DNA of 64,000 bases. It comes from Actinomycetota bacterium. Lineage in GTDB: Bacteria > Actinomycetota > Coriobacteriia > Anaerosomatales > PHET01. How positions within the stretch are numbered: position 1 is the first letter of the stretch; the number at the start of each line of letters is the position of its first letter. The stretch lies in contig JAJUJM010000007.1 of assembly GCA_029265315.1 (NCBI GenBank), positions 27,270 to 91,269 of the forward strand, given 5' to 3'. Below are positions 7,465-54,831 of the stretch, in pieces. A program made the position numbers and the translations under genes. The notes beneath the pieces were generated by a model. The model was not told the origin of the DNA. It searched no databases and worked only from the letters and a program-made list of their open reading frames with translations.

Positions 7465-7511
7465 GCAAGCGATTGTAGCTCGACCGTCGCCGCCGTGTTG
7501 CATACGGTCGT

Positions 7512-7850
7512 TCAGGCTATGGTCACCACATCGTCAGGCCCGAGCAGCGCCGCCACCGATTCGACCATCGTACCCACCTCGCCTACGGCGACCTTGTCTT
7601 TGAGACCGAGGTAGTCAAGGCAGGTGCCACAGGCCCGAACCGCGATTCCGCGCTCAACACACAGCCTGAGGTCCTCGAGCGAGGCAGAGCCCTCACATAC
7701 GAGCCTCACCCCGCGGTTCATGAACATGAGCGCCGCCGGGACATCGTCCACCCGCGCGACCGAATACAGGAAGTTCTTCATGAGTATGGCGCCCAGATCC
7801 CCTTCGGCGGAGCCGATGACATCGGACAGGATGAGCAAGCGCTTCGACAT
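7512..7850 (-). CDS. DsrE-domain protein (C-terminal half of YedF-type selenium metabolism protein)
   Basis: LGAILMKNFL, FMNRGVRL, ACGTCLDYLGL, VGEVGTM; adjacent to selA. Confidence 0.85.
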   Translation of the reverse strand: MSKRLLILSDVIGSAEGDLGAILMKNFLYSVARVDDVPAALMFMNRGVRLVCEGSASLEDLRLCVERGIAVRACGTCLDYLGLKDKVAVGEVGTMVESVAALLGPDDVVTIA

Positions 7851-7965
7851 GGCCACCTCGCATAAGGACGACTTATCTGATTGGCGGTGTTCAGATTATC
7901 GCTTCGCATGTGATGACGCCACCGCACATCGAAGCGCCACCGGCTCATTCGGGAAAGAACCGTGC

Positions 7966-8355
7966 ATGAACCCTTGGTACGCCGCCTTGGCCAAACCCGC
8001 TTGGACGCCGGCCCCAGCGGTCATCGGCGCGATATGGACGGTGCTCTACCCCATCATCTTCGCCGCGTACGGGTACGCGGCCGCCAAAGCGCTCGGCGGC
8101 GCGATGCCCCGCACCGTGCTGCTGCCCATCGCCATCAACCTGGCCGCGAACTTCGCCTTCACGCCGATCCAGTTCGGCCTGAAGAGCCTGCCGCTCGCAT
8201 CGCTCGACATACTCGTGGTGCTTCTCACGATTCCTTGGTCGATGGCGCTGCTCTGGCCGTATTCCCGACTCGCCGCAGCGGCGTTGTCGCCCTACCTCGT
8301 GTGGGTCGGTATCGCCACGGTGTTGCAGCTGAGCATCACGTGGATGAATCGCTGA
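7966..8355 (+). CDS. tspO: TspO/MBR family protein (short form)
   Basis: WYAALAKPAWTP, IWTVLY, NFAFTPIQFG, PYLVWVGIATVL. Confidence 0.88.
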   Translation: MNPWYAALAKPAWTPAPAVIGAIWTVLYPIIFAAYGYAAAKALGGAMPRTVLLPIAINLAANFAFTPIQFGLKSLPLASLDILVVLLTIPWSMALLWPYSRLAAAALSPYLVWVGIATVLQLSITWMNR

Positions 8356-8426
8356 GCCCCGGCTCCGATGAGTGATGTTTCGCTCGCCTTGGAATCGCGC
8401 ACCCGTGGCGCCTGCGGCCCGGCTCG

Positions 8427-9473
8427 CTACCGTACCGTGATGACCCCGTGGCCTTCCCCGGTGAAGCGCCCGACCACCCAGCCTTTGACGCCCCGCGTCT
8501 CGAGTGCGGCGAGCACCTGATCACGCAGCGGCTCGGAAACGGCCATCATCAGGCCGCCGCTCGTCTGTGGGTCGCACAACACACGCATCAACACGTCGCG
8601 GTCGCGGTCACTGTGCCAGCGGACGAAATCGTTCGCCCAAGCCACGACCTCGGCGGTCCTGCCGGGCGCCACATTCCGCTCCGCCCAGTCGAGGGCGCCG
8701 TCGAACAGCGGTATCGCGTCGACACGGATCTCAGCGCCACACCCGCTGGCGGCAGCCATCTCATGCAGGTGGCCGAGCAGCCCGAAACCGGTCACGTCAG
8801 TCGCGGCGTGCACCCCCACCTCGACCATGGCCTCACTGGCTGCACGGTTGAGCTCAGCCATGGATTCGATCACCTGACGAGCATCGTCCTCACTGACGAG
8901 CTCGCGTTTGAGTGCGGTGCCCCACAACCCCGTTCCGAGCGGCTTGGTGAGCACGATCTCATCGCCGGGTAGCGCTCCCCTGTTGCGGATGACACGGTCA
9001 GGATGCACTGTGCCGAAGACCGACAGCCCGAACTTCGGTTCCTTGTCGTCTATCGTGTGCCCGCCCACGACGACCGCACCCGCCTCAAGCACCTTCTCCG
9101 CACCGCCTCGCACGACCTCGCCCACCACGTCCGGCCCGAGCGAGCACGGGAACGCGAGCAGGTTCATCACGGCGAGGGGCCTGCCCCCCATGGCGTAGAC
9201 GTCGGACAGCGCGTTGGCGGCCGTGATGCGCCCGAAGTCGTACGGGTCATCCACGATCGGAGTGAAGAAGTCGACCGTCAGCAGAGCAGCGGAATCATCC
9301 GACAGCCGGTAGACGGCCGCGTCATCGCTCGTCTCGAACCCGAGCATGAGCGCGTCGGAGAAACCCGGTGCGATCCCGTCGAGCACGGCCTGGAGGTCCG
9401 CCGGACCCCACTTGGCCGCTCAACCGGCTTTGCTCGAGAGGCTCGTGAGCCTCACACGCTGCTCCTCGGTCAC
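8427..9473 (-). CDS. selD: selenide, water dikinase, selenocysteine-containing (UGA at 9420-9422)
   Basis: GTG at 9473 gives MTEEQRVRLTSLSSKAG-U-AAKWGP, in frame with DDAAVY, TVDFFTPIVDDP, GGHT, TDVTGFGLLGH, DPQTSGGL. Confidence 0.96.
9385..9419 (-). promoter_or_regulatory. bacterial SECIS-like hairpin of selD
   Basis: Immediately 3' of the UGA: GCGGCC-AAG-TGGGGTCC-GGC-GGACCTCCA-GGCCGT forms a two-part stem with a G-containing apical loop. Confidence 0.75.
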
Positions 9474-21550: not shown

Positions 21551-22525
21551 CTACTTCGAAGTGGTTTCCTGCGAGGCGCCCTTGGCGGCCTGCAGTTCCT
21601 TCACGAAGATCTCGATCTTGGCCTTCTTCTTCAGTTCGTCGAGGAACTTCTGATACGCGTCAGCGCGGCGCTGCTGGATGAGGATCTGCTCGATCTGGTC
21701 CTTGACGTCCTCGAACTTCTGCTGGGTGGCCTTGCGCACGTCGGTCACGCGGATGATGTGCCACCCGTACGGCGTCTTGACGAGACCCGAGGTCTGGCCT
21801 TTGGCGAGCTTGTCGAGCGCAGCCTCGAACTCCGGCACGTATGGCGTCGTGGGCCAACCCAGGTCGCCGCCGTTCGAGGCGGTCGCCGTGTCGACGGAGT
21901 ACTCCTTGGCAAGCGCTGCGAAGTCGCCGCCGTTCCTGACTTGCGCCAGCACCTTCTCGGCGGTCTTCTTGTCCTCAGGCTTGAACAGGATGTGCGAGGC
22001 GCGCTTGGCGGCCTGCTGTTCGAACTGCGACTTGTTCTTGTCGTAGTACGCCTTCATCTCCTGCTCGGAGATCTTGATGTCTGACGCGAGCGACTCGATG
22101 AGCTTCTGCGTGAGGAGCTGGTCGCGGATCTGCTGACGCAGCGTCTCCTCGGTCATGCCGGCGCTCTTGAGCGCGGACTGGAACTGCTCCTCGTCCTGGA
22201 AACCTGACTTCAGCTGCTGGATCTGCTTGTCGATGTCGCCCTCGGCGATCTTGATGCCTTTGTCCTCGGCCGCCTGCTCGACGAGCTTCTGGTTGATCAT
22301 GTTGTCGAGAAGACGCTGCTTGAAGTCGAGCAGACGGCCCTCGCCGTCGGCCCCGTTGAACATGTCAGGGTACTGCTTCTTGAGCTGTGCGACCTGCTTG
22401 TCGAGTTCCGACAGCGGGATCTTCTCGCCGTTGACCTTGGCTGCGGTGTCCTTGTCCGTGCACCCAGCACCGGCGAGGAGTGCGAGGGCGAGGGCCAGAA
22501 CCAGTGCGATGCGAAGCGGTTTCAT
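21551..22525 (-). CDS. prsA: PrsA/SurA-type peptidylprolyl isomerase lipoprotein
   Basis: Lipobox AGC, AKVNGEKI, ASHIL, FAALAKEYS, GGDLGW, GWHII. Confidence 0.9.
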   Translation of the reverse strand: MKPLRIALVLALALALLAGAGCTDKDTAAKVNGEKIPLSELDKQVAQLKKQYPDMFNGADGEGRLLDFKQRLLDNMINQKLVEQAAEDKGIKIAEGDIDKQIQQLKSGFQDEEQFQSALKSAGMTEETLRQQIRDQLLTQKLIESLASDIKISEQEMKAYYDKNKSQFEQQAAKRASHILFKPEDKKTAEKVLAQVRNGGDFAALAKEYSVDTATASNGGDLGWPTTPYVPEFEAALDKLAKGQTSGLVKTPYGWHIIRVTDVRKATQQKFEDVKDQIEQILIQQRRADAYQKFLDELKKKAKIEIFVKELQAAKGASQETTSK

Positions 22526-22531
22526 CCGGAT

Positions 22532-34392: not shown

Positions 34393-35583
34393 TCACACGC
34401 CCGGGTCGCCGAAGTAGCGCCAGTAGATGAGCCAGAACGACATCGTGCCGCTCAGGTGCGGCGTGTAGCGGAAGAGCCCGTACGTGGCCGCATTGGTCGG
34501 ATGGATGACGCTGCCGTCGATCGTCATCGAGATGCCCGGCCGCCACCCGCGCCCCAGGTTGGCGAGCTTCTCGGCGCCACACCAGACCTGCATGCCGAAG
34601 CCTTCGTACTTCGTGAAGGTGCGGCTGTCCGTCTTGCCACAGCCCATCGCCCAATCGTACGCCGTCTGGGTCGGGCGAACGCGCGTGAGCAGTGATTGCT
34701 CCTTCTGCAGCGTGGCCAGCACCACCTTCGGGCTCACCCCCCAGCGCACGGAAGCCTCGTGGATGATCTCGGCAGCCGACTTCTCGACGCCGGTATGGTC
34801 CTTGGCCCGGTAGCGCGCGAGGGTACCCGGCTGGCTCTCAAGGAACTGCTGGACCTGCTCCAAGGTCATCGATCGGGTGTCGCGGAAGACCTCCTCGGCG
34901 ATGACGGTGTTGGGGTTGAAGCCGTCCTTTGAGACCACGGCTCCTGCCGTGGGCTCCCACATCAGTCGCGCGAGGTCGATCTTGATCTGCGCCGCCCGTG
35001 CCTCGGATGCCGCCATGTCACTCTCGATCCGCGACCGCTGCTCGTCAGCACGCCTTTGCAGCTCCGAGAGCTTGTCCATCTTGTTGTACAGGCCCTCTTG
35101 GAGCCACATGTTCTCGGAGCGCACCAGGCGCACATCGTTGATGAGCCTCACATCACGCTCGCCGATCATCGCGAGGTAGGTCGTCCGTACCCACAGGTCC
35201 TGAAACGTCTGCGCAGTGAAGAGCAGGCGGAGCATCTCCATTCGATCGCCTCGATAGAGCTCCACCGCGCGCCGCGTCAACGCGCTCTGCGCCTCTTCAA
35301 GCTCGACCTGCAAAGCGGCGAGCTCGGTGGTCACCTGCGAGATGTCGGCCTTCGTGCGTTCGATCTCCCTGCTGACCTCAAGGTAGTCCGCCACAGCCAC
35401 GCCCAGGTCCAGCTTCAGCTGTTCCAGCTCCTCCCGGACCGCCGCCTCCTCGGCCTTCTTGGCTTCGATGGCGGCGGTTTTGTCACCGGGATCCGGCGGC
35501 GCGGCCGATCCCACCCCGGGCACGGCGAGGACAGCCGCCAGAACGGCGGCGAGGAGCATCCACGTGTGTACCCGACGGCTCAC
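34393..35583 (-). CDS. secreted PcsB-like coiled-coil protein with putative lysozyme-like C-terminal domain
   Basis: Signal peptide; heptad coiled coil (RRAVELYR...LFTAQTFQDL); IIHEASVRWGVSPKVVLATLQKEQSL; start uncertain. Confidence 0.7.
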   Translation of the reverse strand: MSRRVHTWMLLAAVLAAVLAVPGVGSAAPPDPGDKTAAIEAKKAEEAAVREELEQLKLDLGVAVADYLEVSREIERTKADISQVTTELAALQVELEEAQSALTRRAVELYRGDRMEMLRLLFTAQTFQDLWVRTTYLAMIGERDVRLINDVRLVRSENMWLQEGLYNKMDKLSELQRRADEQRSRIESDMAASEARAAQIKIDLARLMWEPTAGAVVSKDGFNPNTVIAEEVFRDTRSMTLEQVQQFLESQPGTLARYRAKDHTGVEKSAAEIIHEASVRWGVSPKVVLATLQKEQSLLTRVRPTQTAYDWAMGCGKTDSRTFTKYEGFGMQVWCGAEKLANLGRGWRPGISMTIDGSVIHPTNAATYGLFRYTPHLSGTMSFWLIYWRYFGDPGV

Positions 35584-35676
35584 GATCGTCTCACTGGCTC
35601 CCGAGCGATGCGCACACGCTGCTTCATCGCGACAAAACTGCAGGTCGTATGCCACAAGAGGGTACCACGCCCAACA

Positions 35677-36941: not shown

Positions 36942-37283
36942 TCAGCCGCGACCGCCGTCTGAGTAGCGATACACGTGGACGTCTTCGACGATGATCATCC
37001 CGCCGCTCATCATCTCGTCGATCTTCGGCAAGACCGCATCAACCCGTTCGGGCGTATCGGCGAAGATGATCACGACAGGCAGGTCCTGTGAGAGCACGAG
37101 GATGTTCGCGGTGTGGACCCTACTCGCCGCCCCGAACCCTTCCACGCCCTTCAGGACGGTCGCACCGGCGCAACCCTCGCGCCGGAGCATCTGGACGATC
37201 GCGTCATAGAGAGCGTGATGCCCGTAGCGATCCGACTCACCTATGTGGATCGTGACGCGCTTACCGGGTCCCTCGATGTGCAT
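36942..37283 (-). CDS. DUF190 (PII-like) protein
   Basis: IHIGESD, GATVLKGVEGFG, LSQDLPV; typical crcB partner. Confidence 0.92.
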   Translation of the reverse strand: MHIEGPGKRVTIHIGESDRYGHHALYDAIVQMLRREGCAGATVLKGVEGFGAASRVHTANILVLSQDLPVVIIFADTPERVDAVLPKIDEMMSGGMIIVEDVHVYRYSDGGRG

Positions 37284-37292
37284 GAGTCCCTC

Positions 37293-37673
37293 CTAGACCA
37301 GTCGACCGACGACGAGGCCCGCCAGGACGGCGACGAGACCGACCAGCCCCGAGCCGAACATGTTGAGCACACCCGCCGTCCACAGGCCCCGCTCCATCAG
37401 TGCCATGCTCTCGTAGGAGAGTGTCGAGAACGTGGTGTAACCGCCGAGTATCCCCACGCCCAGGAACAGGCGACCGTGCGCGGGCAGAAGCCCCCGCTCG
37501 ACCGATGTCGCCATCACGATGCCCAGCAGGAACGCTCCGGTGATGTTGATGACGAACGTGTGCCAAGGAAACGACGTGCCCCACCTCTCCGCGATGACCG
37601 TCCCCAGAACATAGCGGGCACCCCCTCCTATGCCGGCTCCGATCACCACGACCGCGATGTCGCTCAGCTTCAT
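37293..37673 (-). CDS. crcB: fluoride efflux channel Fluc
   Basis: GAGIGGGARY, PWHTFVINITG, GILGGYTTFSTLSYE. Confidence 0.95.
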   Translation of the reverse strand: MKLSDIAVVVIGAGIGGGARYVLGTVIAERWGTSFPWHTFVINITGAFLLGIVMATSVERGLLPAHGRLFLGVGILGGYTTFSTLSYESMALMERGLWTAGVLNMFGSGLVGLVAVLAGLVVGRLV

Positions 37674-37691
37674 CTTGCCTCCAGAGAACAG

Positions 37692-37728
37692 AAAAGCCTC
37701 TACACGCAGACACCCACGTGTAGGAGCC
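37692..37728 (-). terminator. riboswitch-coupled intrinsic terminator
   Basis: GGCTCCTACACG...CGTGTAGAGGC followed by TTTT; 5' arm overlaps the aptamer 3' end. Confidence 0.75.
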
Positions 37729-37767
37729 ATCAGCCGGAGCGGTTCAGTAGGCGAGCCCCATCGCCTG
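37719..37767 (-). ncRNA. fluoride (crcB) riboswitch
   Basis: AGGCGATGGGGCTCGCCT-ACTGAACCGC...GCTGATGGCTCCTAC matches the known pattern; upstream of crcB; -10 TAGACT at 37775-37780. Confidence 0.92.
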
Positions 37768-37973
37768 TGGGCCCAGTCTACCTGACGAGCGCCGGAGGTG
37801 ACACGGGGCGACGATGACCCGCTGGTGACCAGCGAACGACCTGAAGACGCGACCAAGTGGCTCAGTTCGCGAAGAGTGAGCAGGTGACGTGTGTCTTGGT
37901 CGCGATACGAAGCCGTAGACGAACCAGGACCAAGAGCCGCACCTCTGAACAGGAACCGCAGCTCAAGACAGGA

Positions 37974-38000
37974 GAAAGCCCCGGTCTTGCGACCGAGGCT
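37974..38000 (-). terminator. terminator after tRNA-Phe
   Basis: AGCCTCGGTC-GCAA-GACCGGGGCT followed by TTC. Confidence 0.65.
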
Positions 38001-38013
38001 CCCGACAAGTCGA

Positions 38014-38089
38014 TGGTGGCCAGAGACGGACTTGAACCGCCGACACGGGGATTTTCAGTCCCCTGCTCTACCAACTGAGCTACCTGGCC
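38014..38089 (-). tRNA. tRNA-Phe (anticodon GAA)
   Basis: GGCCAGGTAGCTCAGTTGGTAGAGC...GACTGAAAATC...GGTTCAAGTCC...TGGCCACCA; promoter TTGACG-N17-TACCAT at 38105-38133. Confidence 0.97.
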
Positions 38090-38137
38090 ATTGCGTGCCC
38101 ACGTATGGTAGCCACGCGCAGGGAGCGCGTCAATCGC

Positions 38138-39199
38138 TCATCGCGAGTCCTGACCCCGGCGCAGCCTCAACACCTGCACCCGATGGTTCTCCTTATCGGT
38201 CACGAGAACCAGGTCGCCGGCTACATCGACATCGTTGGGATACTGGAAGCGCCCCGGCCTCGTGCCCTGTGTCCCCCACCGGCGGACGAGGGCGCCATTG
38301 GCATCAAGCTCCCCAAGCGAGAAGCTGAACGCATCGGCGACCAACACGCCGCCGTCATCCATCGCGCTGATCCCACGAGGCAGGCCGAACAAGCGCCTAT
38401 CCGAGTCCCCGCCGGCCGTCTGCCACAGCACGGTACCGCTTGCATCGACCGCCAAGGCCCGAAAGCGATTGGTGTCTGAGAGGTAGATGGTGCCATCACG
38501 CCCCAGCGCGACCCCGTTCGGGCGCGCGAGCGCGTCAGCCTTGCCCGCGATCCGCAGTCGTCCACGTGAGCCGCCGTTCAGGGTGAAGACCTCAACGCCA
38601 GTCTCGTCAGTGACGTAGACATCCCGCTCGCCGACGGCTACATCGGTGGGGCGCCAGTCGGTCACACCGGGAGGGGCGAACGTCCGGACGAAACGGCCGG
38701 CCGCGTCATAGATCGCGACTCGCCCGCCCCGCAGGTCCGCGACGTAGACTGCGCCGAGCTCGCTCACGTCAAGCCCGACCGGCATCTGAAGCGGCTTCAC
38801 GCTGGCTCCGCGCGGGGCTGCGACGGTACCGGGACCACCGAACTCCCGCAGAAATCGCCCATCGCGAGCGAACTCACAGATGCGCCCGTTGCCTGTGTCA
38901 GACACGAGGATGGTGCCACCGAGACCCCACGCGGCGGCCAGCGGGCGCACGAAGGTCGGCTGCGCACCGATGCCTGGACCCTCGATGATGCGAACGACGG
39001 TGAGCGGCGGCGGGCCCGGGTCGAGCAAGTCCAGATAGTCTGCGATGAGGGCGGTGATCAAGGCGAGCATGGTGAGCGAGACCAGCCCGAAGACGACACG
39101 GCGGCGCGTCGAACGCAACCGGTCCCGGGTCCGTTGCGCGCGGCTCACCCCGTCTATCACGGGCCCGTCCCCGGCTGGGGGCCTCACTTCTCGTGTCAC
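38138..39199 (-). CDS. membrane-anchored NHL-repeat beta-propeller protein
   Basis: N-terminal TM helix; VSDTGNGRI, PVGLDV, PNGVAL, PRGIS, FQYPNDV, TDKENHRVQ; GTGA-coupled to the cytochrome gene. Confidence 0.88.
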   Translation of the reverse strand: MTREVRPPAGDGPVIDGVSRAQRTRDRLRSTRRRVVFGLVSLTMLALITALIADYLDLLDPGPPPLTVVRIIEGPGIGAQPTFVRPLAAAWGLGGTILVSDTGNGRICEFARDGRFLREFGGPGTVAAPRGASVKPLQMPVGLDVSELGAVYVADLRGGRVAIYDAAGRFVRTFAPPGVTDWRPTDVAVGERDVYVTDETGVEVFTLNGGSRGRLRIAGKADALARPNGVALGRDGTIYLSDTNRFRALAVDASGTVLWQTAGGDSDRRLFGLPRGISAMDDGGVLVADAFSFSLGELDANGALVRRWGTQGTRPGRFQYPNDVDVAGDLVLVTDKENHRVQVLRLRRGQDSR

Positions 39200-42100
39200 A
39201 GGCCCGTCCCCGCGTGGGCGTGACACCCGCCCGCGGTGCAGTCGATCGGCCAGACGGTGAGATCGGCGCCGCCTTCCGTCGCATCGGGATGCGTCGTGGG
39301 ACCGACGATGTGACAAGAGCCACAGAAGAAGCGCAGGTCGGCCCCGGAGCCGACGGGCACGACCGTGAGTCCGTCGACGACCACCGGCGTCCCGGACGCC
39401 GCCACCGATTCCGCCAATCCCCAACGGTTCGACGAACCATGCGGGTCGTGACACACCTCGCACGACAAGGGGTCGCCGGGAGCGTAGTTCATGTCGGGAC
39501 GCAGGTGACTCGGCGAGGAGACGGCTTCTCCGTGCGCTGCGGTCGCCCACGTGGTCGCGATGTTCGACACGGTCGCAGAGCCACCGGGCCCAAGGGGCAC
39601 CGGCGCCCACCCGGAGGTCTCCGCCGACGTGGGAAGCTCGGTGTCATGGCAGCGCAGGCACAGCCCGACGACCGTGCCGGTCCAACCGCCCGCGGTGCTC
39701 GGATCGTCCGGATCGACGGTCGGGGTGCCCGGCGCCGAGACGTGCGGCTCGTGACAGTTCGCACACGTGATCATGGAACCGTTGGTGGTCTGATCGGCCT
39801 CGAGCAGGTCGTGCCGCGTGGTGGAGTCAGCTCCGGACAGACTAGCCGCGACGTCAGCGGCCCCCGGCAGCGAGTACGCGGCCGAGTGACACCAGACGCA
39901 GCGCTGGTCGGCGCTGTAGGGCACGAGTGCGGACTCACGCGTGGCGTGACCCCGGTGGCAAGCAAGACACACGACCTCGACCGCGTCAGCCGGAGCGGGA
40001 ACACTCGCACGGTGGCCCGATGATTCGAAGACGGTCATGTCCCCGCGCGGCAGCGTCGTGGCCACCCCATGGCAGGCGTAGCAGATCGCATTGCCGGTCC
40101 TGACGCCGCCGGGTGCGTACAGCAGCTTGCCCAGCTCAGGTCCGCCGTTGTCGTTGTGCGGCGTATGGCACTGGCCACACCGCAGCACCGTCACCGTGTT
40201 CTCGACCGAGACGGGATGTCTGCTGGTCATGGCCGGGTCTGAGAAATCGTCGAACACGTCAGGCGCCGACGTGCCATCGTGACAGCTCAGGCACAGAGCG
40301 ATCTCGTTGTCGCCCGGCGTGGTCAGGAGCGCGAGCGAGTTGGCCGACGTGTGCGAACGGTGGCACAGCGCGCAGTCATCGGTGAACGGGTCGTACTCAC
40401 CATGCGGCGAGTCCGTGACGTCGTCACTCAGCGTGTGGACGAACACCCCGAGTCCGGTAGCACCCACCACGCCCGACGAATCGACTGCGGCCACCCGGTA
40501 CCAGTAGTCGGTGTCGATTGCGGTCGTCGTGTCCAAGTACGACGTGGCGCTGATGGCAGGCGAAGTGATGAGCGAGGGCGCGCCTGTGCTTGTGGTGGAG
40601 CGGTACAGCAGGTATCCCGTCGCGCCCGGCAGCGCAGTCCAGCTCGTCTCGACGCCTGCCGTCGCGGCGTGCGCCCGCAGGCCGATCGGAGCCGGCAGTG
40701 CAGTGAGCGTCGTCACGGCCGATGTCGCCTCCGCGCTCGCCGTGCCCTCGCCGCGAGCGTCGGTGACCGCCACCCGGTACGACGCGAGAACCGGTGCGAC
40801 GAGACTGGTGTCGACCCACGAGCCGGGATAGCTGACCGGTACCGTGGCCACGAGCGAGTAGGGGCCTCCGTCAAGCGCTCGGTAGATGCGGTAGGCGACC
40901 GGGCCAACCGTGCCGGTCGTCTCGCCCCAGTTCAGGTACACCGCGTTGCGGTAGGCGGTGCGAGCGAACACGATTGCGGGCGGGCGCGGCAGCTCGCCCA
41001 GCGTGAAGCTTTCCGCCGGGTCCGACTCGCCCGAGACGTTCCCGGCCACATCGTACGCGCGAACCGTGAACGTCGTCTCGGTCTCTGGCGTGAGGCCAGT
41101 GAGTGTGATCGCGGGCACCGCACTCGTGCCGACCACGGACCCGTCTTGCAGCACCTCGTAGTACGCGACTCCGGATGTGGTGTCATACGACGGCGCCCAC
41201 GTGAGAGTCGCGGTCGTAGACGTCACCGAAGCGGCCAACAGCGTCGGCGTGGTCGGTGCTCCTCGATCGTGCTTCACCACGACAGTCCGGGTGGTCTCGC
41301 GGTTGCCACCGGGGTCGATGGAGTAGTAAGCGATCGTGATGGTGCCTTCACGAGTCATCGTGAAGGGAGTCGAGTACGTCGTCCACGGCCCCGACACCCC
41401 GTTCAGGCTGTAGTACGTGATGGCCGGCTCCGTGGTCGAGAAGCTGACGTCAGGCGACGTGAGGTACCAGCCGTTCGTGCCATCGGGGTCGGCTGGGTCC
41501 AGAGTGACCGTCGTCTCGGGTGCTGAGGCGTCTGTGGTGCGCAGGATCGTACCTGCGAGGCCGACTATGACGCCTTGATCAGGGCTGGCGAAATCAACGG
41601 CGCGCAGCGTTGTCGCGGTACCGGGGTTCTGGAGGGTCCACGTGGCCCCGCCGTCGGTCGTGCGTCGAACCACCGATACCACGCCGGACGAGGCGCCCAC
41701 ATACCAGCCGTTGAGCGCATCCTCGAATCGTATGGCGTTCAGAGCCGCCGTCACACCTGTTGGCACCGTGGTCCACGTGGTACCGCCGTCGGTCGTCCTG
41801 ATCAGGGTGCCGGTGTCACCGACGGCCCAAGCGGTCTGTGTGTCCACGGCGGATACCGCGCGAAGAATGCGTCCCACCGGCAGTGACGTGGTCTGGGTCG
41901 TCCACGTCGAACCACCGTCCACCGTCTTAAGCACCGCGGCGGGCTGTCCGGCCACACCACCGACCGCCCACCCTGTGTTCGCATCGGCGAACGAGATCCC
42001 GTTCAGCGCGACCGATGTCGCTATCGAGGAGGGGGTCTGAGTCGTCCACGTCGAACCGCCATCAGTGGTTCGACCCAGCGTGGCATCGCCCGCGGCGTAC

Positions 42101-44319
42101 CATCCCGTATTCGAGTCCAGAAAATCCACCGCGTTGATGCTCGATGTCGTGCCCGACGACTGGGCCACCCAGGTCGTGCCGTTGGTGGTGGCACGAATCG
42201 TGCCGGCAGCACCCACGGCCCACCCCTGTGTGGCGCTCACGAAGTCGACGCCGAGAAGGTCCTGTGTCGTACCCGAGGCAAGCAGCACCCATTCGAGCCC
42301 ATCGGCGGTCCGGACGATGACGCCGCCATTGCCCACCGCCCAGCCATTCAAGACATCTGCCAGTGCTACCGCATTGAGCTGAGCAGCCGTGCCGTAGCTG
42401 ATGTCCTGCCAGTTGGCGCCCCCGTCATCGGTCCTGCGGACGAGACCACCTGCCCCGACGAGCCAGCCGTTGCTGGCTCCGACAGCTGAGACGCCGTTGA
42501 TGTTGGCGGTGGTACCCGAGTTCTGTGCTGTCCATGTGACGCCCCCGTTGGTCGTGCGCAGAACCACGCCACCTGTGCCGACGGCCCACCCTGCGCCCGA
42601 AGCATCCATTGCCACGCCATAGAAGGAGCCAGCCGGGTTGGTCGCGGCGTTCCAAGTGGCGCCACCATTGGTGGTGTAGCGAATGACGTTGTTGGTGCTT
42701 CCGACCACCACGCCGTTGTCTGCATCCGTGAAGTAGACATCCCTAAGATAACTCGTCGCCCCGAGCGGCTGGGCCACCCACGTCAGACCGCCATCGGTCG
42801 TCTTACGGATGGTGTTCGTCTGACCGACCGCCCAACCTGTGTTCGCGTCGACGAAGAACACGTCGGTCAGATTGACGGCGGTACCCATGGTCATCGTCGT
42901 CCAAGTGGAACCGCCGTCGGTCGTCTTCAAACCGATGCCACCGGCGCCGACCGCATACGCGGTCTGCGAGGTGACGGCAGAGATGGCATTCAGCGTGACC
43001 GTTGTCCCGGAGTTCTGCGACGCCCACGTGTCGCCGCCGTTCGTCGTGCGCCTGATGCGTCCTGTTCCGCCTACGACCCAACCGTACTGCGAATCGGCGA
43101 AGTCGATGCCCTGCCACGCTGTCGCACCGCCCGCCGAGCGATTGAGCCACGTCACGCCTCCGTCGACGGTCTTCATGATGAGTCCGCTCGCACCGGCGGC
43201 CCAACCTGTCATTGTGTCGAGGAAGTACACGTCGTTGATTGTCAGCGTCGTGCCCGGCGCTTGGTTGAGCCAGCTCACGCCGGCGTCCGTCGTGCGCAGC
43301 ATCGTGCCGGTCGTGCCGACCACTTGGGCGTTCGAGGCGTCGAACAACGCCACCGAGTACAACGTGGGCGTCGCCACGCCGTACTGGCTGGCGCTCCACG
43401 TCGCTCCGCCATCGGTCGTGTAGAGGATGTTACCGCCGCTTCCCACGATCCAGCCGGTGTTCGCGTCAGCGAACGCCACGCTGTAGAAGACTGTCGTACC
43501 GGCGACCGGCACGGTCTGTGTGGTCCATGTCGACCCGCCATCGGTCGTCTTGAGAACGGTTGCGGACGCACCCACTGAGTAACCGACGTTCGTGTCGACG
43601 AAATCGACCCCGAACAGGTTCGCGGTCAACCCCGCGGGCGGCGCGACGGTGGTCCACGTCGAACCGTCAGCTGTTCGCACGATCGTAGCAGCGTTGCCCA
43701 CCGCCCAAGCGTGTGTCGTCGATACCGAATCGACTCCGTTGAGCTGCTGCGTGGTGCCTGAAGCCTGACCGACCCACGACGCGCCCCCTGACGTGGTGGC
43801 CCGGATCGTGCCCGTCTGCCCGACGACCCACCCCGTCGAGGCGTTGGCGAACCTCACGCCGTACAGGTTCAGAGCCGTTCCGGATGTCTGCGTGGTCCAG
43901 CTCGAACCGCCGTCACTCGTCGCCCTGATAGTCCCGCCCAGACCCACCAGCCAGCCCGTGCTCGCATCAACGAAATCAACGGCCCTCAGCTGCGCCTGGG
44001 AGTTCGGGTCCTGAGCCGCCCACGTGACTCCGGCGTCATTGGAGTACAGCACGACACCCGGCGTGCCGACCGCCCACACGTTCGACGTGCCCGCTGTCGT
44101 GACACCGTAGAGCGTGTTGCCCTGTGGGAGCGGATTCTGCCAGTACCACGCCCTCTGCCCGGTAGGAGCCGTCGACAGCAGCGCGGAGGCGACGAAGGGC
44201 GCAACGACCAAGGCCGCTGTCAACACGCCAGCGACTATCACCTGTGGCAGTCCCCTATGCCGGTCAGGCTGCCTGCTGATAGACCCAGTCCCGTCTCCCG
44301 ATGGGCACGACGAACCCAC
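39196..44319 (-). CDS. giant exported multiheme c-type cytochrome (21 Asp-box/YCF48 repeats, Ig-like and FN3 domains, 11 heme motifs)
   Basis: Signal/TM segment VIVAGVLTAALVVAPFVASA; WYWQNPLPQGN; T-x-D/N-G-G-x-T-W repeats; FN3-like VRAYDVAGN and YRVAAVD; 10 CxxCH plus one CTAGGCH; start uncertain. Confidence 0.9.
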   Translation of the reverse strand: MGSSCPSGDGTGSISRQPDRHRGLPQVIVAGVLTAALVVAPFVASALLSTAPTGQRAWYWQNPLPQGNTLYGVTTAGTSNVWAVGTPGVVLYSNDAGVTWAAQDPNSQAQLRAVDFVDASTGWLVGLGGTIRATSDGGSSWTTQTSGTALNLYGVRFANASTGWVVGQTGTIRATTSGGASWVGQASGTTQQLNGVDSVSTTHAWAVGNAATIVRTADGSTWTTVAPPAGLTANLFGVDFVDTNVGYSVGASATVLKTTDGGSTWTTQTVPVAGTTVFYSVAFADANTGWIVGSGGNILYTTDGGATWSASQYGVATPTLYSVALFDASNAQVVGTTGTMLRTTDAGVSWLNQAPGTTLTINDVYFLDTMTGWAAGASGLIMKTVDGGVTWLNRSAGGATAWQGIDFADSQYGWVVGGTGRIRRTTNGGDTWASQNSGTTVTLNAISAVTSQTAYAVGAGGIGLKTTDGGSTWTTMTMGTAVNLTDVFFVDANTGWAVGQTNTIRKTTDGGLTWVAQPLGATSYLRDVYFTDADNGVVVGSTNNVIRYTTNGGATWNAATNPAGSFYGVAMDASGAGWAVGTGGVVLRTTNGGVTWTAQNSGTTANINGVSAVGASNGWLVGAGGLVRRTDDGGANWQDISYGTAAQLNAVALADVLNGWAVGNGGVIVRTADGLEWVLLASGTTQDLLGVDFVSATQGWAVGAAGTIRATTNGTTWVAQSSGTTSSINAVDFLDSNTGWYAAGDATLGRTTDGGSTWTTQTPSSIATSVALNGISFADANTGWAVGGVAGQPAAVLKTVDGGSTWTTQTTSLPVGRILRAVSAVDTQTAWAVGDTGTLIRTTDGGTTWTTVPTGVTAALNAIRFEDALNGWYVGASSGVVSVVRRTTDGGATWTLQNPGTATTLRAVDFASPDQGVIVGLAGTILRTTDASAPETTVTLDPADPDGTNGWYLTSPDVSFSTTEPAITYYSLNGVSGPWTTYSTPFTMTREGTITIAYYSIDPGGNRETTRTVVVKHDRGAPTTPTLLAASVTSTTATLTWAPSYDTTSGVAYYEVLQDGSVVGTSAVPAITLTGLTPETETTFTVRAYDVAGNVSGESDPAESFTLGELPRPPAIVFARTAYRNAVYLNWGETTGTVGPVAYRIYRALDGGPYSLVATVPVSYPGSWVDTSLVAPVLASYRVAVTDARGEGTASAEATSAVTTLTALPAPIGLRAHAATAGVETSWTALPGATGYLLYRSTTSTGAPSLITSPAISATSYLDTTTAIDTDYWYRVAAVDSSGVVGATGLGVFVHTLSDDVTDSPHGEYDPFTDDCALCHRSHTSANSLALLTTPGDNEIALCLSCHDGTSAPDVFDDFSDPAMTSRHPVSVENTVTVLRCGQCHTPHNDNGGPELGKLLYAPGGVRTGNAICYACHGVATTLPRGDMTVFESSGHRASVPAPADAVEVVCLACHRGHATRESALVPYSADQRCVWCHSAAYSLPGAADVAASLSGADSTTRHDLLEADQTTNGSMITCANCHEPHVSAPGTPTVDPDDPSTAGGWTGTVVGLCLRCHDTELPTSAETSGWAPVPLGPGGSATVSNIATTWATAAHGEAVSSPSHLRPDMNYAPGDPLSCEVCHDPHGSSNRWGLAESVAASGTPVVVDGLTVVPVGSGADLRFFCGSCHIVGPTTHPDATEGGADLTVWPIDCTAGGCHAHAGTGL

Positions 44320-44625
44320 CCACTCCCCGGTACGCGACAGACACGACTGGATGGGGGTGGGAATCTTGTGTCCCAGTGTAGCATCTGAGCACGCGAAACG
44401 GGGCCTTTCAGGTGCGAGAACCCACCGTTGGTCCCGAAATGTCACTCGTGTTGCATCAATCCGACGAACCGCTCTGGCCGGAATCTGACGAACGGTTGAA
44501 GTCGGGCGACAGCCGATATCCCTTTGCCGCGCGCACAGCACCCGCGATTTCTGGGATACTCGCATGGTGGACGGCGACATCGGGCGCCTCGCCACTCGAA
44601 GACCTCGGCTGATGGGAGATACGCG

Positions 44626-45345
44626 ATGGCACAGGCGGAACCCAGGCGCGGTGACGCGCTCCAGCTCATCTTCTCGTTCTTCCTGGGAATCCTTCTCGTG
44701 GTCGTGGTAGGCGTGGGCGTCTGGACGTTCTACGAACAGCCTTTCGGCCCCAACTCGCCCGAACAGGAGCGACTCGAAGAGCTGTACAAGCAGCAGGAAC
44801 AGATCAACATGCGCACCGGCGGCAAGGAGATGACGCCGGCCGACCAGGCCGAGATGAAGAAGATCCAAGACGAGGTCGACAGGATCAACGACGACATGAG
44901 TGACCGTCGCGACCAGTGGGCGGTCAACACGAGCATCATCCTCATCATCTTCGCCACGGTCCTCATGGCGATATCGCTCTTCCTGCCCGAGATGCTGCGC
45001 GTGTTCAGCAACGGATTCCTGCTGGGAGGCATGTTCACGCTCATCTACGGCACCGGTTGGTCGTTCGCAGGCGGCGATACACGTGCGCGCTTCTGGGTTG
45101 TGCTTGTGGCGCTCATCCTGAGCGTCGGTATCGGCTATCTGCGCTTCATCCTGGGCAGGCAGCAGAAAGCCGAAGCGGCCGCGCTGGCTGCGGCTGGTGG
45201 GGCGGGCGCGGGCATCGCGGCAGGCGCGGTGCTCACGGCCGACTCCGACGCGCTCTCAGACCTCGCGGCACGCGTGACCGAGCTCGAGCGCCGAGCTGCC
45301 GCTGCGGCAGCGGCCCTCGGAGCGAACACAGACCGCGAAAAGTGA
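44626..45345 (+). CDS. hypothetical membrane protein (4 TM, periplasmic coiled coil)
   Basis: RBS GGGAG, hydrophobic helices, GC-rich third codon positions. Confidence 0.8.
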   Translation: MAQAEPRRGDALQLIFSFFLGILLVVVVGVGVWTFYEQPFGPNSPEQERLEELYKQQEQINMRTGGKEMTPADQAEMKKIQDEVDRINDDMSDRRDQWAVNTSIILIIFATVLMAISLFLPEMLRVFSNGFLLGGMFTLIYGTGWSFAGGDTRARFWVVLVALILSVGIGYLRFILGRQQKAEAAALAAAGGAGAGIAAGAVLTADSDALSDLAARVTELERRAAAAAAALGANTDREK

Positions 45346-45368
45346 GTGCGGAGGTCAGCCTTAGCGAG

Positions 45369-46271
45369 CTACACCCCGGCCTCGTGACGCGCGACAAGGC
45401 CCGACCAGCGGTCATCGACCCACTCCTGGACCTCGGCGATCGTCTCCTCGGACACGCCACGGAACCGGCTCTGCCCTGCCATGTACTCGGCGACACTCGC
45501 CTTGAGCCCTGACTTCGCAAGCGCGGCGCTGCGCCCGGTGAGTCGGAACACGCCGTCGGCGACCTCGTAGAGCGCGACGAGCCCGGCATCGACCGCCAGC
45601 CTGCCGTAACGCACGCTGTCTTTCGGGTCGAAGCCCCAGCCGCTCGGACATGGCAGGTTCATGTGCACGTAACGCAGGCCCGCGCGACCGTTCGCCGCCA
45701 CGATCTTGTCGTGCAGGTCCTCGGGGAACACCGCGCTCGCGGACGCGACGTAACCGACATCGTGGGCCTCAACGATGGCGAGCACGTCCTTCGGGTTCTC
45801 GCGCTTGCCCGACCACGTCGTCGTGGTGCGTGCGCCGTGCGGCGTCGAACCCGAGCGCTGCGTGCCCGTGTTCATGTACGCCTCATTGTCGTAGCAGATG
45901 TAGATGAAGTCCTCGTTCCGCTCGGCGGCGCCGGACAGCGCCTGGATGCCGATGTCGGCGGTTCCGCCATCACCCGCCATCGCCACAACCGTCATCTCGT
46001 CTGCGCGGCCGGTGGCGCGCAGGCCCGCCGCGATACCGCTCGCGGTTGCCGCCGTTGAAGGGAACGCGCAGTTCACCCACGGGATGGCGAGCGACGAGAT
46101 CGGGTACATGCCGCCGAGCACGGTGAGGCAGCTCGCCGGGTTGACGAGCACCATGCGCCCGTCGAGCGCGGCGGTGATGCGGCGCAGCGCGATGCCGAGC
46201 GGGCACCCCGCGCAGGCCCGGTTGCCGGGCAGGACGTGGCCGGTGTCGGGCAGGTCGGTGATGCGCGTCAT
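45369..46271 (-). CDS. porB: 2-oxoacid:ferredoxin oxidoreductase beta subunit (TPP-binding)
   Basis: ACAGC, GDGGTADIG...YDNEAYMNTG, CPSGW. Confidence 0.93.
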   Translation of the reverse strand: MTRITDLPDTGHVLPGNRACAGCPLGIALRRITAALDGRMVLVNPASCLTVLGGMYPISSLAIPWVNCAFPSTAATASGIAAGLRATGRADEMTVVAMAGDGGTADIGIQALSGAAERNEDFIYICYDNEAYMNTGTQRSGSTPHGARTTTTWSGKRENPKDVLAIVEAHDVGYVASASAVFPEDLHDKIVAANGRAGLRYVHMNLPCPSGWGFDPKDSVRYGRLAVDAGLVALYEVADGVFRLTGRSAALAKSGLKASVAEYMAGQSRFRGVSEETIAEVQEWVDDRWSGLVARHEAGV

Positions 46272-52253: not shown

Positions 52254-52431
52254 CGTTTCCCCTCTCGCCGGTTCCTTCTGCACACCTGCTGAAGACGCTC
52301 GGTGAACGCACCGCGCCGATGATACGTCATAGTATGCGACCCGACGCCGGATGCGTCGGAGTCTCGCTGGGGTACAAGCACACGAAGCCGGTTTTCGACA
52401 AGGATGCACCGCATCAGGAGGGGCGTGAGGG

Positions 52432-54831
52432 ATGAAGAGGACACATCGCCGGTCGGGGTTCTTCACCGCCGTGCTCACGATCCTGCTCGTGACGGTGGCG
52501 TGGGGGACGCTCGTCACCGCGGCCGTCGCGGCGCCCCCTGGGCCGGTGATGGGCCTGAACGAACTGCGAATGCGCCTACTGCAGGCCGGCCCTTCCGGCA
52601 TCGCAGGGCACTTCGACACCGTGCTGCGCGGAGACACGATCTCGTCGATACCGGTTCGCGTCATCGCGGTGACCGGAGGCCCCACGGACGTACTCGACCC
52701 GGCGCAGACCCTCATCTACTTCGAGGCGTACGGCCCTGACATCGACAGGATCGGCGGCATCGCACAAGGCATGAGCGGCAGTCCTGTCTTCGTCAGCGTG
52801 AACGGCAGCGACTGGCTCATCGGGGCGCTGGCATACGGGGACATGTTCTCGCGCAACGGCGCTGGGCTCGCCACCCCCATCGAGGCCATGACTCGCGTGG
52901 AGTCCGAGTACCGCCCAACGTCGCTTTCGTTCGCCGGCCCCGTCATGACCGGGAGCGGCATCAAGGAACGCGTGGTCATCATGGATTCGGACGGCACCGC
53001 CCCACATGACGCCGAAACCATCGTCGCGCGACCGCTCACCGCTCTCTTCGTGTCGCAGACCGCTCCCCGGTCCACGCTGTACCAAAGGCTCAAGCGAGCC
53101 ATCGAAGCCGAAGGGTATTCCGTTCTCCCCTTCGCCGCCGACCTCGGCACGGGCGGGGAACGCTTCACGACGACGCTGCGCGGAGGCTCATCGCTGGCCG
53201 TCCTGCTCACCCGCGGTGACCTGTGGTTCGGAGCTCTAGGCACGGTCACCTACGTCGACGACAGCAACGTCATGGGCTTCGGACATCCGCTGACAGGCGC
53301 CGGTGCGACCGACTTCTACATGAGCAACGCATGGGTCGATGGCGTATGGGGAAGCTCTGCCGTTCCCTACAAGTTCGGGGTTCCCGGGGCATTGCGCGGA
53401 ACGCTTCTGTCTGACCGCCCCGCGGGCGTCTTCGGCAAGATAGGCCCAATGCCGCAAGAGGCCGTCGTACGGGCGCGCGCACGGCGCACGGACACCGGAG
53501 CCAGTGCGACCTCAGCGGTGGCGATCACCGACAAGACCATCAACTCGGCGATGATGTTCGGTCAGTCCCTACCCGCGTACGCCGCCGCGACCGCGGGATA
53601 CAGGCTCATCGACACCTGGCCCGCCCCGGGTAGCGCCATCACGACGACCACGGTGCGGCTGACCGACGGCGAGACCGACTACACCGTCGTTCTCCGCAAC
53701 CGCTACGACAGCACGGACGACATCGTCGCGGCCACGGCCAATGATGTCGTGCGCATCGTGGGTCAGCTGCAGCTGGTCAACGACACCGGCATCCACCGGG
53801 CCCGCATCACATCGATCGACCTGGAGAGTGAGCTCTCGCCCTCGAGGAACACGGCGCACGTCGTGGGCGTGAGCGTCCCAGGCGGACTCAAGCACGGGGA
53901 CAACCTCGTCCGCGTCTCACTGCTGCAGAAAGGTGTCGCGGCCACTCGGACCGTCGACGTCACCGTCACCGTTCCCGACGACGTATCGCTCAAAGGACAG
54001 CTCGTCGCGCGCAGTCAGCAGACGCCGCCGTCCTCCGGCGAGCAGCCTCCCACGTCAACTCAGCCCGAGGACCGGCGCCCCACCGACATCGTCGTCGCCG
54101 CCCTGAACCAGCTTGTGCCGAATGACGTGCTGACCGTCGAGTACTTCGCCCTCGAGGGCGACGCGGTTTCACCGAAGCCCGGGCCGGCCGGACCGCCCGC
54201 TGCGTCGGCCTCGGCCACCATCACGACGCCTTGGGCGCTCACCGGATCGGTCTTTCGCATGAGTGAGCCGCTGCTCGTCGAGATCCCCCAGACGACGATC
54301 GCCTATCGTGGCACGGTGCCGGTGAACGGCACCGTGTCCGGGGTCTACGACGGTGTCGCGGAGGTCTGGGTACGCCCCTACGGAGAGGTCAACGAGACCC
54401 TGGTCGCCACGGCGGCACTCGAACCCGGCATGGCCGGCGGCACGTTCACAGCCTACATCTCGGGACTGACACGCAACTCGCGGCTGCGTATCGTCGCTCC
54501 GGGTGGCACTGATGTCGTGGAGTCCCAAGCCACGGCGCTTGTGAGAGTCCGTGCATCAGTGGGTCTGACCGCGAGTACGGACCGTCCCACAGCAGGCACC
54601 TCCGTCAGACTGCGGGCCAACGTGGCCCCGACTTCAGTGAGCGGACCTGTGATCTTCGAGCGACGCGTCGGACGCACCTGGCGGACGATCGGGGTGGCGA
54701 GGCTGTCATCAGGAAGCGCCACCCTCGCCTTTGCACCGCCCGCCGGTTCGACAGTCGTGCGGGCACGGGTGTCCGGGCGACCGAGCAACGCGGCCGGGGT
54801 CTCGCGCACCATCACCTTGGTCACCCGCTGA
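52432..54831 (+). CDS. secreted SpoIVB-like peptidase (S55) with C-terminal Ig-like domains
   Basis: Signal peptide; GIAQGMSGSPV; ALGTVTY...FGHP. Confidence 0.85.
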   Translation: MKRTHRRSGFFTAVLTILLVTVAWGTLVTAAVAAPPGPVMGLNELRMRLLQAGPSGIAGHFDTVLRGDTISSIPVRVIAVTGGPTDVLDPAQTLIYFEAYGPDIDRIGGIAQGMSGSPVFVSVNGSDWLIGALAYGDMFSRNGAGLATPIEAMTRVESEYRPTSLSFAGPVMTGSGIKERVVIMDSDGTAPHDAETIVARPLTALFVSQTAPRSTLYQRLKRAIEAEGYSVLPFAADLGTGGERFTTTLRGGSSLAVLLTRGDLWFGALGTVTYVDDSNVMGFGHPLTGAGATDFYMSNAWVDGVWGSSAVPYKFGVPGALRGTLLSDRPAGVFGKIGPMPQEAVVRARARRTDTGASATSAVAITDKTINSAMMFGQSLPAYAAATAGYRLIDTWPAPGSAITTTTVRLTDGETDYTVVLRNRYDSTDDIVAATANDVVRIVGQLQLVNDTGIHRARITSIDLESELSPSRNTAHVVGVSVPGGLKHGDNLVRVSLLQKGVAATRTVDVTVTVPDDVSLKGQLVARSQQTPPSSGEQPPTSTQPEDRRPTDIVVAALNQLVPNDVLTVEYFALEGDAVSPKPGPAGPPAASASATITTPWALTGSVFRMSEPLLVEIPQTTIAYRGTVPVNGTVSGVYDGVAEVWVRPYGEVNETLVATAALEPGMAGGTFTAYISGLTRNSRLRIVAPGGTDVVESQATALVRVRASVGLTASTDRPTAGTSVRLRANVAPTSVSGPVIFERRVGRTWRTIGVARLSSGSATLAFAPPAGSTVVRARVSGRPSNAAGVSRTITLVTR

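Follow-up and report, generated by a model that had tools for sequence, protein, structure and literature searches.

The window analysed here, a stretch of 64,000 nucleotides from an Anaerosomatales genome (Actinomycetota, Coriobacteriia; contig JAJUJM010000007.1, positions 27,270 to 91,269), exhibits two overlapping genes on the minus strand. The first (39196..44319, stop codon included) encodes a modular multiheme c-type cytochrome of 1707 amino acids (aa), with a head of three Ycf48-like beta-propellers, a stalk of Ig/FN3-like domains and a C-terminal module of eleven heme-binding motifs. The second (38138..39199) encodes a membrane-anchored NHL beta-propeller protein of 353 aa. The two genes are found side by side in other genomes, next to differing neighbours. 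We incline, by a small balance of the evidence, to the view that they form a cell-surface component of extracellular electron transfer, a two-gene module in which the NHL protein serves as the membrane dock of the cytochrome.

The cytochrome gene was delimited from its open reading frame (ORF) and start candidates, its Pfam and NCBIfam domains and its database relatives. Its stop codon is the TGA at 39196-39198. The likeliest start is the GTG at 44319, which has GGGGAG before it and keeps an Arg-containing n-region in front of the hydrophobic segment. An alternative GTG at 44241, the one used for a database copy of the protein (P0003), would yield 1681 aa. The predicted product (about 180 kDa, encoded in a window of 64-71% G+C) is rich in Thr (14.8%) and Ser (8.0%), and has the length that a preliminary description of the sequence had given as about 1700 aa. 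Residues 1-46 (44182..44319, minus strand) exhibit the features of a Sec-type signal peptide: an Arg-containing n-region, a hydrophobic core and an A-S-A motif, after which the mature protein would start with the conserved L-S-T-A-P-T-G. These features were recognized by eye and not with a signal-peptide predictor. The N-termini of the family are built in the same order, with a conserved STAPTG/WYWQNP motif behind a conserved AxA site. The protein is thus predicted to be exported, as is expected of paired-CXXCH cytochromes and as had been proposed before. In a Kyte-Doolittle scan, the signal segment is the sole hydrophobic segment of the cytochrome.

The heme-binding motifs are all located in the last 418 residues (1290-1707; 39199..40452, minus strand). 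There are ten CxxCH motifs and one CX4CH (CTAGGCH), arranged as five pairs of the form H...CxxCHxxH...CxxCH, the first motif of each pair being CxxCHxxH, followed by a terminal CX4CH-x-H. Twenty-two of the 23 cysteines of the protein belong to these motifs; the other one, residue 5, is in the signal peptide. The module matches PF09699 Paired_CXXCH_1 (E-value = 9.4e-23, 80.1 bits for a cut-off of 20.6, three stretches) and belongs to the paired-CXXCH family by its TIGR01905 score (61 bits for a cut-off of 25.2). Cytochrome c7/c3 and MtrC/MtrF-type models also match the last 420 residues. All eleven motifs are invariant in the 19 aligned relatives (19/19; module identity 35-82%), which argues that the motif set is not due to chance. 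In the paralogs, a more distant clade, the place of the unusual CX4CH is taken by a plain CxxCH, which argues that it also binds heme. Outside the motifs, ten histidines and Met321 are conserved and provide potential distal ligands for the eleven hemes. They would suffice to make all hemes six-coordinate, suggesting a module of electron-transfer type rather than one with a catalytic open site. A beta-rich insert occupies module residues 340-375. The module finishes in a short Gly-rich tail with L as its last residue. Nearly every family member (L079-L118; one exception) ends 5-12 residues past the last CH-x-H in such a tail with a final L or F, the C-termini of the orthologues reading CHxHxGxGL. 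Such tails occur in clades both with and without an NHL neighbour, and may be docking or sorting tails. A search of the ESM Atlas with the module retrieved generic paired-CXXCH clusters only, with scores (≤0.87) under the lead level of 0.9.

The head covers residues ~47-930 (41530..44181, minus strand). A strict Asp-box pattern matches it 16 times at a spacing of 40-48 aa, leaving two gaps of 124 and 121 aa, each the size of three units. The gaps hold degenerate Asp-box copies, which raise the count to about 20 blades, and a degenerate final unit raises it to about 21, or 3 × 7, as in the preliminary description. Pfam PSII_BNR (PF14870) matches ten stretches of the head (E-value = 1.8e-83, 280.7 bits) and a Sortilin-Vps10 match is also found in the protein. 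The best PDB sequence matches of the propellers are Ycf48 structures (2xbg_A, E-value = 2e-24). The head thus shares the seven-bladed Asp-box propeller with Ycf48/HCF136 (2xbg, 5ojp, 8am5), its best match among families as well as in PDB. In contrast to these proteins, it exhibits three tandem copies of the propeller in an exported protein of a cytochrome-rich anaerobe, and its score for the NF010237 equivalog (321.1 bits) stays below the cut-off of 326 even when summed over the three propellers. The resemblance concerns fold and scaffold and does not extend to function.

Residues 931-1289 (40453..41529, minus strand) form a stalk of four Ig/FN3-like beta-sandwich domains, identified with AlphaFold2, Foldseek, Pfam fn3 and an NCBIfam OmpL47-type domain; one Ig-like and about three FN3 domains had been recognized there before. 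The AlphaFold2 model of the stalk is all-beta, with four domains and a mean predicted local distance difference test (pLDDT) of 88.4, and Foldseek aligns it with four-FN3 fragments in PDB (6tpw, 5.5e-14; 1fnf, 2.1e-12). The wall-binding modules SLH, LysM and LPXTG were not detected in the cytochrome by Pfam or NCBIfam. Lacking a second hydrophobic segment and an LPXTG or SLH module, the cytochrome, once cleaved, would need a partner to stay on the cell. Since the redox cofactor motifs are confined to the last 418 residues, the head and the stalk cannot conduct electrons; they could only bind, space or anchor. The earlier idea that head and stalk are fused to a heme wire so as to pass electrons across the wall is not borne out in this form, as this would take further cytochromes or an acceptor in close contact.

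The GTG start of the NHL gene overlaps the TGA of the cytochrome gene by four bases (GTGA, 39196-39199); alternative starts are the GTGs at 39187 and 39160. PF01436 matches the NHL protein with an E-value of 1.9e-27 (94.3 bits for a cut-off of 20). A Kyte-Doolittle scan reveals a single N-terminal transmembrane (TM) segment at about residues 34-57 (39029..39100, minus strand), and a hydrophobic segment is present at the same place in those NHL orthologues of which the N-terminus is covered. No AxA site was seen in the NHL N-terminus. By the positive-inside rule, the Arg-rich tail before the TM segment would give an N-in topology with the propeller outside. Six blade motifs (hydrophobic-x-hydrophobic-[AST]-D) in the NHL alignment define a predicted six-bladed propeller at about residues 70-348 (38156..38992, minus strand). 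Both the overlap and the anchored propeller had been noted correctly in the preliminary description.

Propellers of this kind raise the question of an enzymatic role. The pair could be an extracellular redox enzyme with its catalytic site in the NHL/SGL-type or the Asp-box propellers, the eleven hemes feeding or draining its electrons. Hydrolases and lyases do occur among NHL/SGL six-bladed propellers, and relatives of the NHL protein carry the name "sugar lactone lactonase YvrE". The enzyme-family scores are at or under their cut-offs, with a weak SGL match of the NHL protein (26.7 bits for a cut-off of 26.3) and a glycosylhydrolase model of F510_1955 type below its cut-off (92.1 versus 175 bits). 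A metal or redox site would call for an invariant His or Cys, and neither occurs among the 51 invariant columns of the NHL alignment. Among solved structures, the one most closely related to the propellers is a non-enzymatic scaffold, and the conserved distal ligands are enough for all hemes. On these grounds we consider the redox enzyme improbable.

The arrangement of the two genes is conserved. In other genomes, the NHL gene is located directly 3' of the cytochrome gene in ten of ten distinct orthologous loci (heme modules 46-82% identical; duplicates between collections removed before counting). The flanks of these loci vary, with genes for His/Trp biosynthesis, LeuA, an FAA hydrolase or DNA polymerase III, and here with 2-oxoacid:ferredoxin oxidoreductase and tRNA-Phe genes. 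A constant pair amid differing flanks indicates that the two genes travel as a unit. The identity of the NHL proteins tracks that of the heme modules, being 66% where the modules are 82% identical and 41-48% where they are 46-52% identical. The nearest NHL paralogue in the same genome exhibits 37% identity, below the level of the cross-genome orthologues (41-66%). Eight of the nine NHL ORFs of the genome lie at most 2 kb from a multiheme ORF, a distance that covers only 7.8% of the genome; all eight exhibit an N-terminal hydrophobic segment and no CxxCH. Two distant matches of the heme-module search (P0045, P0048) are fusions of an N-terminal NHL propeller with a paired-CXXCH cytochrome.

These data bear on the simplest alternative, namely that the two genes are mere neighbours, the NHL protein having an unrelated envelope role and the cytochrome acting alone. 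NHL propellers are generic and found in many unrelated architectures, and no cytochrome domain was found in the 120 longer relatives that a search with the NHL protein listed. According to the calibration of the complex-prediction tool, gene adjacency alone is weak grounds for binding. The preservation of the pair in all ten orthologous loci despite unrelated flanks, the four-base overlap and the proximity of eight of the nine NHL ORFs to multiheme ORFs nevertheless leave this alternative very little probability. At one orthologous locus (L103, 4242-14670), two full giant cytochrome genes stand in tandem, the last motif being CX4CH in one and a plain CxxCH in the other, followed by a single NHL gene.

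About 20 database proteins of 1358-1729 aa share the propeller-FN3-cytochrome architecture. They are all metagenomic, bear no informative names and form two length classes that differ by about 300 aa, matching two or three propellers. A whole-protein search retrieved propeller relatives from many phyla only, without the cytochrome part. A profile search of 1.84 billion representatives yielded 311 proteins at an E-value ≤1e-30. About 60 of these match the whole heme module, which is always C-terminal, in proteins of 440-3017 residues. Pfam scans of 32 whole-module proteins revealed interchangeable N-terminal parts: Ycf48-like propellers with fn3, fn3 arrays alone, Big_5 with fn3, Big_13/SigLec-like domains, a YDG with a Gly-rich domain, ZU5, and short forms, one of which (P0093) exhibits an N-terminal hydrophobic segment immediately before the heme module. 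Judged from these domain contexts, the undecaheme module is a C-terminal cassette joined to many different heads. Matches of 212-215 aa were considered as free, OmcE-sized stand-alone pentahemes and rejected; they exhibit no signal peptide and look like fragments. Across 200 other sampled genomes of the class, 45 of the 94 in families f1-f19 and none of the 106 in families f20-f25 exhibited the module at an E-value ≤1e-10.

A profile of the module was compared with PDB sequences, 23 of which matched at E-values up to 1. The first half exhibits its best match to 6r2q_A (E-value = 8.6e-14, positions 38-185), which we take to be MtrA of the MtrCAB complex, and also matches NrfB (2ozy_A, 9.2e-7). 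The second half matches 7tfs_A, presumably OmcE (7e-8, positions 198-280), 9yuq_N (3.7e-6) and OmcS (6ef8_A, 0.0024). Like the MtrA/DmsE decaheme wires, to which its first half is closest in sequence, the module would arrange paired CxxCH motifs in a linear wire. It differs from them in its TIGR03508 score (42.5, far under the cut-off of 192.2), in its eleven hemes and in its C-terminal position within a giant modular protein. MtrA-type cytochromes moreover sit in an outer-membrane porin, whereas the host genome here is without a match to Omp85 or LpxC. With OmcE and OmcS the second half shares a local motif, H-D-L...CxxCHxxH...P-L-x-(D/N)-P...F-C-x-x-C-H-D-G. Those proteins are small, free-standing polymerizing subunits with four or six hemes; the region here is part of a fused module with eleven.

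The OmcE-type match suggests another alternative, a nanowire precursor, from which the module or its OmcE-like second half would be released by proteolysis and polymerize, head and stalk being a pro-domain or a decoration of the filament. One of the matching structures, 9yuq, is a filament of an OmcE homologue, and OmcE-like proteins with extra hemes are described from uncultured phyla in the same study (10.1101/2025.10.22.684050). The match is local, spanning only about 85 of 407 profile positions, and the module is fused and C-terminal in every one of the ~60 clusters, the short stand-alone matches looking like fragments without signal peptides. No protease gene adjoins the pair. We regard a nanowire precursor as very unlikely.

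The host genome (2.06 Mb, 26 contigs, 99.97% complete) looks monoderm by its gene content. In this nearly complete genome (99.97%) Omp85 and LpxC are unmatched, and two sortases are present, in agreement with the Gram-positive type of host assumed beforehand. The closest named relatives, both by NrdD (83-91% identity) and by the heme module, are metagenome-assembled genomes of Coriobacteriia or Actinobacteria. The search for cytochrome c maturation genes, which had been proposed as a check, revealed two genes for ResB, with a CcsA-type gene beside each of them, as well as six matches to Cytochrom_C_asm (PF01578; CcsA/CcmF-type), that is, the maturation genes expected of a genome with paired-CXXCH cytochromes. 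There are 33 ORFs with at least three CxxCH motifs, among them ORFs with 53, 43 and 36, as well as several NiFe hydrogenases and only one molybdopterin enzyme. The organism is a cytochrome-rich anaerobe using hydrogen and formate, with a working set of maturation genes by which the motifs of the module would be loaded with heme. Cultivated Anaerosomatales have Gram-positive walls, respire Fe(III), elemental sulfur or thiosulfate with hydrogen or formate and possess 17-18 multiheme cytochromes (PMC9686372), which that study treats only in general terms. The host is similar to the described members of this order in genome size, G+C and gene content. The three ORFs with 53, 43 and 36 motifs are located at C26:96180-104990, C26:120024-128480 and C8:243402-247733, respectively, and the 53-motif ORF is followed by a 1618-aa ORF with many NHL repeats (C26:91180-96036).

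We propose the following mechanism for the pair. The product of the first gene would be exported through the Sec pathway by a cleavable signal peptide and consist of the propeller head, the Ig/FN3 stalk and the C-terminal undecaheme module. The second gene, translationally coupled to the first, would provide a type-II membrane-anchored six-bladed NHL propeller, which would keep the cytochrome, itself without an anchor, on the outer side of the membrane. The heme module would be a short wire of bis-His hemes, possibly with one His/Met heme, and would take electrons from other membrane or wall cytochromes for delivery to an extracellular partner, or work in the opposite direction. Head and stalk, which hold no cofactor, would bind or space the target, which may be a mineral, a polymer or another cell. 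Ten-heme wires are about 8-10 nm long, and the heme module would have roughly the same length; from the usual size of an FN3 domain, the four-domain stalk would measure about 14-16 nm if extended.

The proposed contact was modelled with the heme module, four hemes and the NHL propeller, along with three controls. The complex scored 0.46 (runs 0.46, 0.43 and 0.48), whereas the best of the three controls scored 0.00; the pLDDT of the partners was at least 87 and the runs agreed in at least 77% of their contacts. The mark for this score, the calibration of which holds only roughly for such a job, is reached by 116 of 157 solved complexes and by 2 of 215 mismatched pairs. Scores past the mark and not above 0.60 are, however, exhibited by only 18 of the 157 solved complexes and by both passing mismatches. 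The model thus lends weak support to binding of the heme module to the NHL propeller. Docking through the NHL protein, as suggested in the preliminary description, gains from the conserved pair and from the margin over the controls, with the support staying weak.

Several observations weigh against the proposed dock and electron-transfer role. A complex score of 0.46 falls in a band where wrong predictions outnumber right ones, unless binding was already likely. NHL propellers are generic, as their longer relatives attest. In a paralogous clade of the cytochrome (35-43% identity, with an extra Ig/FN3 unit), an NHL neighbour was found in none of 16 distinct loci, three of which have short flanks. 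The full-length module is present in only 21 of the 200 sampled class genomes, all of them in families f1-f19, which makes it an accessory trait and not a core one. The pair itself is located among housekeeping genes and not beside a quinol dehydrogenase or other cytochromes. An AlphaFold2 model of the module, built without hemes from a 19-row alignment, exhibits a mean pLDDT of 40.8, too poor for a comparison of its fold with known wires. Finally, we can only guess that the heme module lies close to the membrane; the sequence equally allows the opposite geometry. At the four paralogous loci inspected, a multiheme cytochrome of 437-477 aa stands next to the giant gene instead of the NHL gene; this second cytochrome follows the giant gene at L108 9229-10539, L109 9245-10609, L110 9149-10579 and L112 9140-10567.

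In the inverted geometry, the propellers and FN3 domains would be a cell-proximal scaffold in the wall, or would form the wall or an S-layer-like lattice, and the heme module would be the exposed distal tip. The NHL protein would then be a helper of assembly, export or maturation at the membrane and not a permanent dock. Ycf48, to which the propellers are closest among solved structures, serves as a protein-binding assembly scaffold, and a constant heme module with variable heads also fits a "constant effector, variable anchor". The paralogs without an NHL gene and the short form P0093, in which a hydrophobic segment directly precedes the module, point in the same direction. Wall anchors, however, are usually conserved within a lineage, while the heads here vary widely; SLH, LysM and LPXTG modules went undetected by Pfam and NCBIfam, and the weak support for a contact between heme module and NHL propeller (0.46; best control 0.00) favours the dock. 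We judge the inverted geometry to be unlikely.

Passage of electrons through the thick Gram-positive wall is known from only a few Firmicutes proteins such as OcwA, and hardly at all from the widespread subsurface lineage of Coriobacteriia related to OPB41/Anaerosomatales. Like OcwA, the cytochrome described here is a predicted exported multiheme c-type cytochrome of a monoderm; OcwA, proposed to carry out the last step of extracellular electron transfer, also has a cleaved signal peptide and no obvious covalent anchor. OcwA differs in that it stands alone, has an NrfA/HAO-like fold and carries nine hemes, two of them with open sites. The present protein exhibits eleven predicted hemes in paired-CXXCH units with candidate distal ligands for all, about 1290 residues of propellers and FN3 domains ahead of them, and an NHL partner. 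No OcwA chain is found among the 23 PDB matches at E-values up to 1, a comparison by sequence only, and NrfA chains are marginal matches (E-value = 0.0025-0.035), mostly without a significant stretch.

Beta-propellers next to multiheme cytochromes are known from diderms. Electron-transfer bacteria of this type possess a core operon with genes for a beta-propeller of six blades, for cytochromes with 16 and 26 hemes and for a peptidyl-prolyl isomerase (PPIase) (PMC5539420). Comparable cases come from Desulfovibrio ferrophilus (DFE_0451/0463; PMC8322314, PMC9769857) and from Tenderiales, where UetH/UetI accompany the undecaheme UetJ (10.1101/2022.05.06.490989). They share with the pair here a six-bladed (NHL) propeller of unexplained role kept beside large extracytoplasmic multiheme cytochromes, and UetJ also has eleven hemes. 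The diderm propellers are soluble or lipoprotein periplasmic proteins accompanied by a PPIase and a porin. The pair here exhibits a TM-anchored propeller in a monoderm host, no adjacent PPIase, no porin, eleven hemes and a huge non-heme head.

No description of the propeller-FN3-undecaheme architecture with an NHL partner was found in our literature searches. The preliminary description had named the system its best candidate for an undescribed one; this may stand for the architecture, but the theme of a propeller beside a multiheme cytochrome is already documented in diderms (PMC5539420, PMC8322314). What sets the locus apart is the monoderm host, the TM-anchored propeller, the lack of a PPIase or porin, and the triple Ycf48-like head with its FN3 stalk. 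Overall, the earlier observations are confirmed and their interpretation is partly supported.

The locus represents a compact two-protein unit, of which a heme module of about 420 residues and a soluble NHL ectodomain can be separated, and the family suggests a design rule of a constant heme cassette with variable binding heads. A bolder reading, which we hold to be doubtful, is that of an "electro-adhesin", a distinct monoderm solution to extracellular electron transfer: a constant undecaheme plug would sit in an NHL socket (in the paralogs, on a second cytochrome) and swappable heads on an FN3 stalk would choose the mineral face, polymer or cell partner. If this were true, the NHL protein would be a membrane dock of multiheme cytochromes, which would explain the propeller genes in diderm electron-transfer operons. 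Docking of the heme module on the NHL propeller would by itself assign a role to the unexplained six-bladed propellers beside large cytochromes in many electron-transfer operons.

Directly after the NHL gene is a tRNA-Phe (GAA) gene (38014-38089, minus strand), followed by a fluoride riboswitch (37714-37774, minus strand; 46.9 bits for a gathering score of 34) upstream of crcB (37293-37856) and a DUF190 gene (36942-37283). These neighbours indicate that the operon ends with the NHL gene. In a scan of 37800-45500 for promoters and terminators, one site resembling each was found, which does not exceed the number in shuffled sequences. Upstream of the pair, the gene at 44524-45345 (plus strand) is transcribed away from the cytochrome gene; its small product, a membrane protein of about four hydrophobic helices, has no Pfam family. 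Only the closest relative (L134) has kept this gene at the same position, with 71% identity; orthologous loci that are more distant have not. Beyond it are genes for 2-oxoacid:ferredoxin oxidoreductase subunits. The rest of the window is of housekeeping type (SelA/SelB/SelD, enolase, pyruvate kinase, Mfd, NrdD/NrdG), and the nearest PPIase-type ORF within it (21551-22531) lies about 16 kb from the pair.

Two further ORFs of the window deserve mention. One of 427 aa (34393-35676, minus strand) exhibits a coding-like codon bias and no Pfam family; the other, of 800 aa (52429-54831, plus strand), exhibits weak Big_3_5 and Peptidase_S55 matches. The window also contains selenocysteine machinery (4151-9419, minus strand), consisting of SelB, SelA and a SelD-like protein of AIR-synthase type. 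Elsewhere in the host genome, two ORFs (C8:50427-51905 and C22:53918-55786), for the large subunit of a NiFe hydrogenase and for the sole molybdopterin enzyme, contain a single in-frame TGA each and probably encode selenoproteins.

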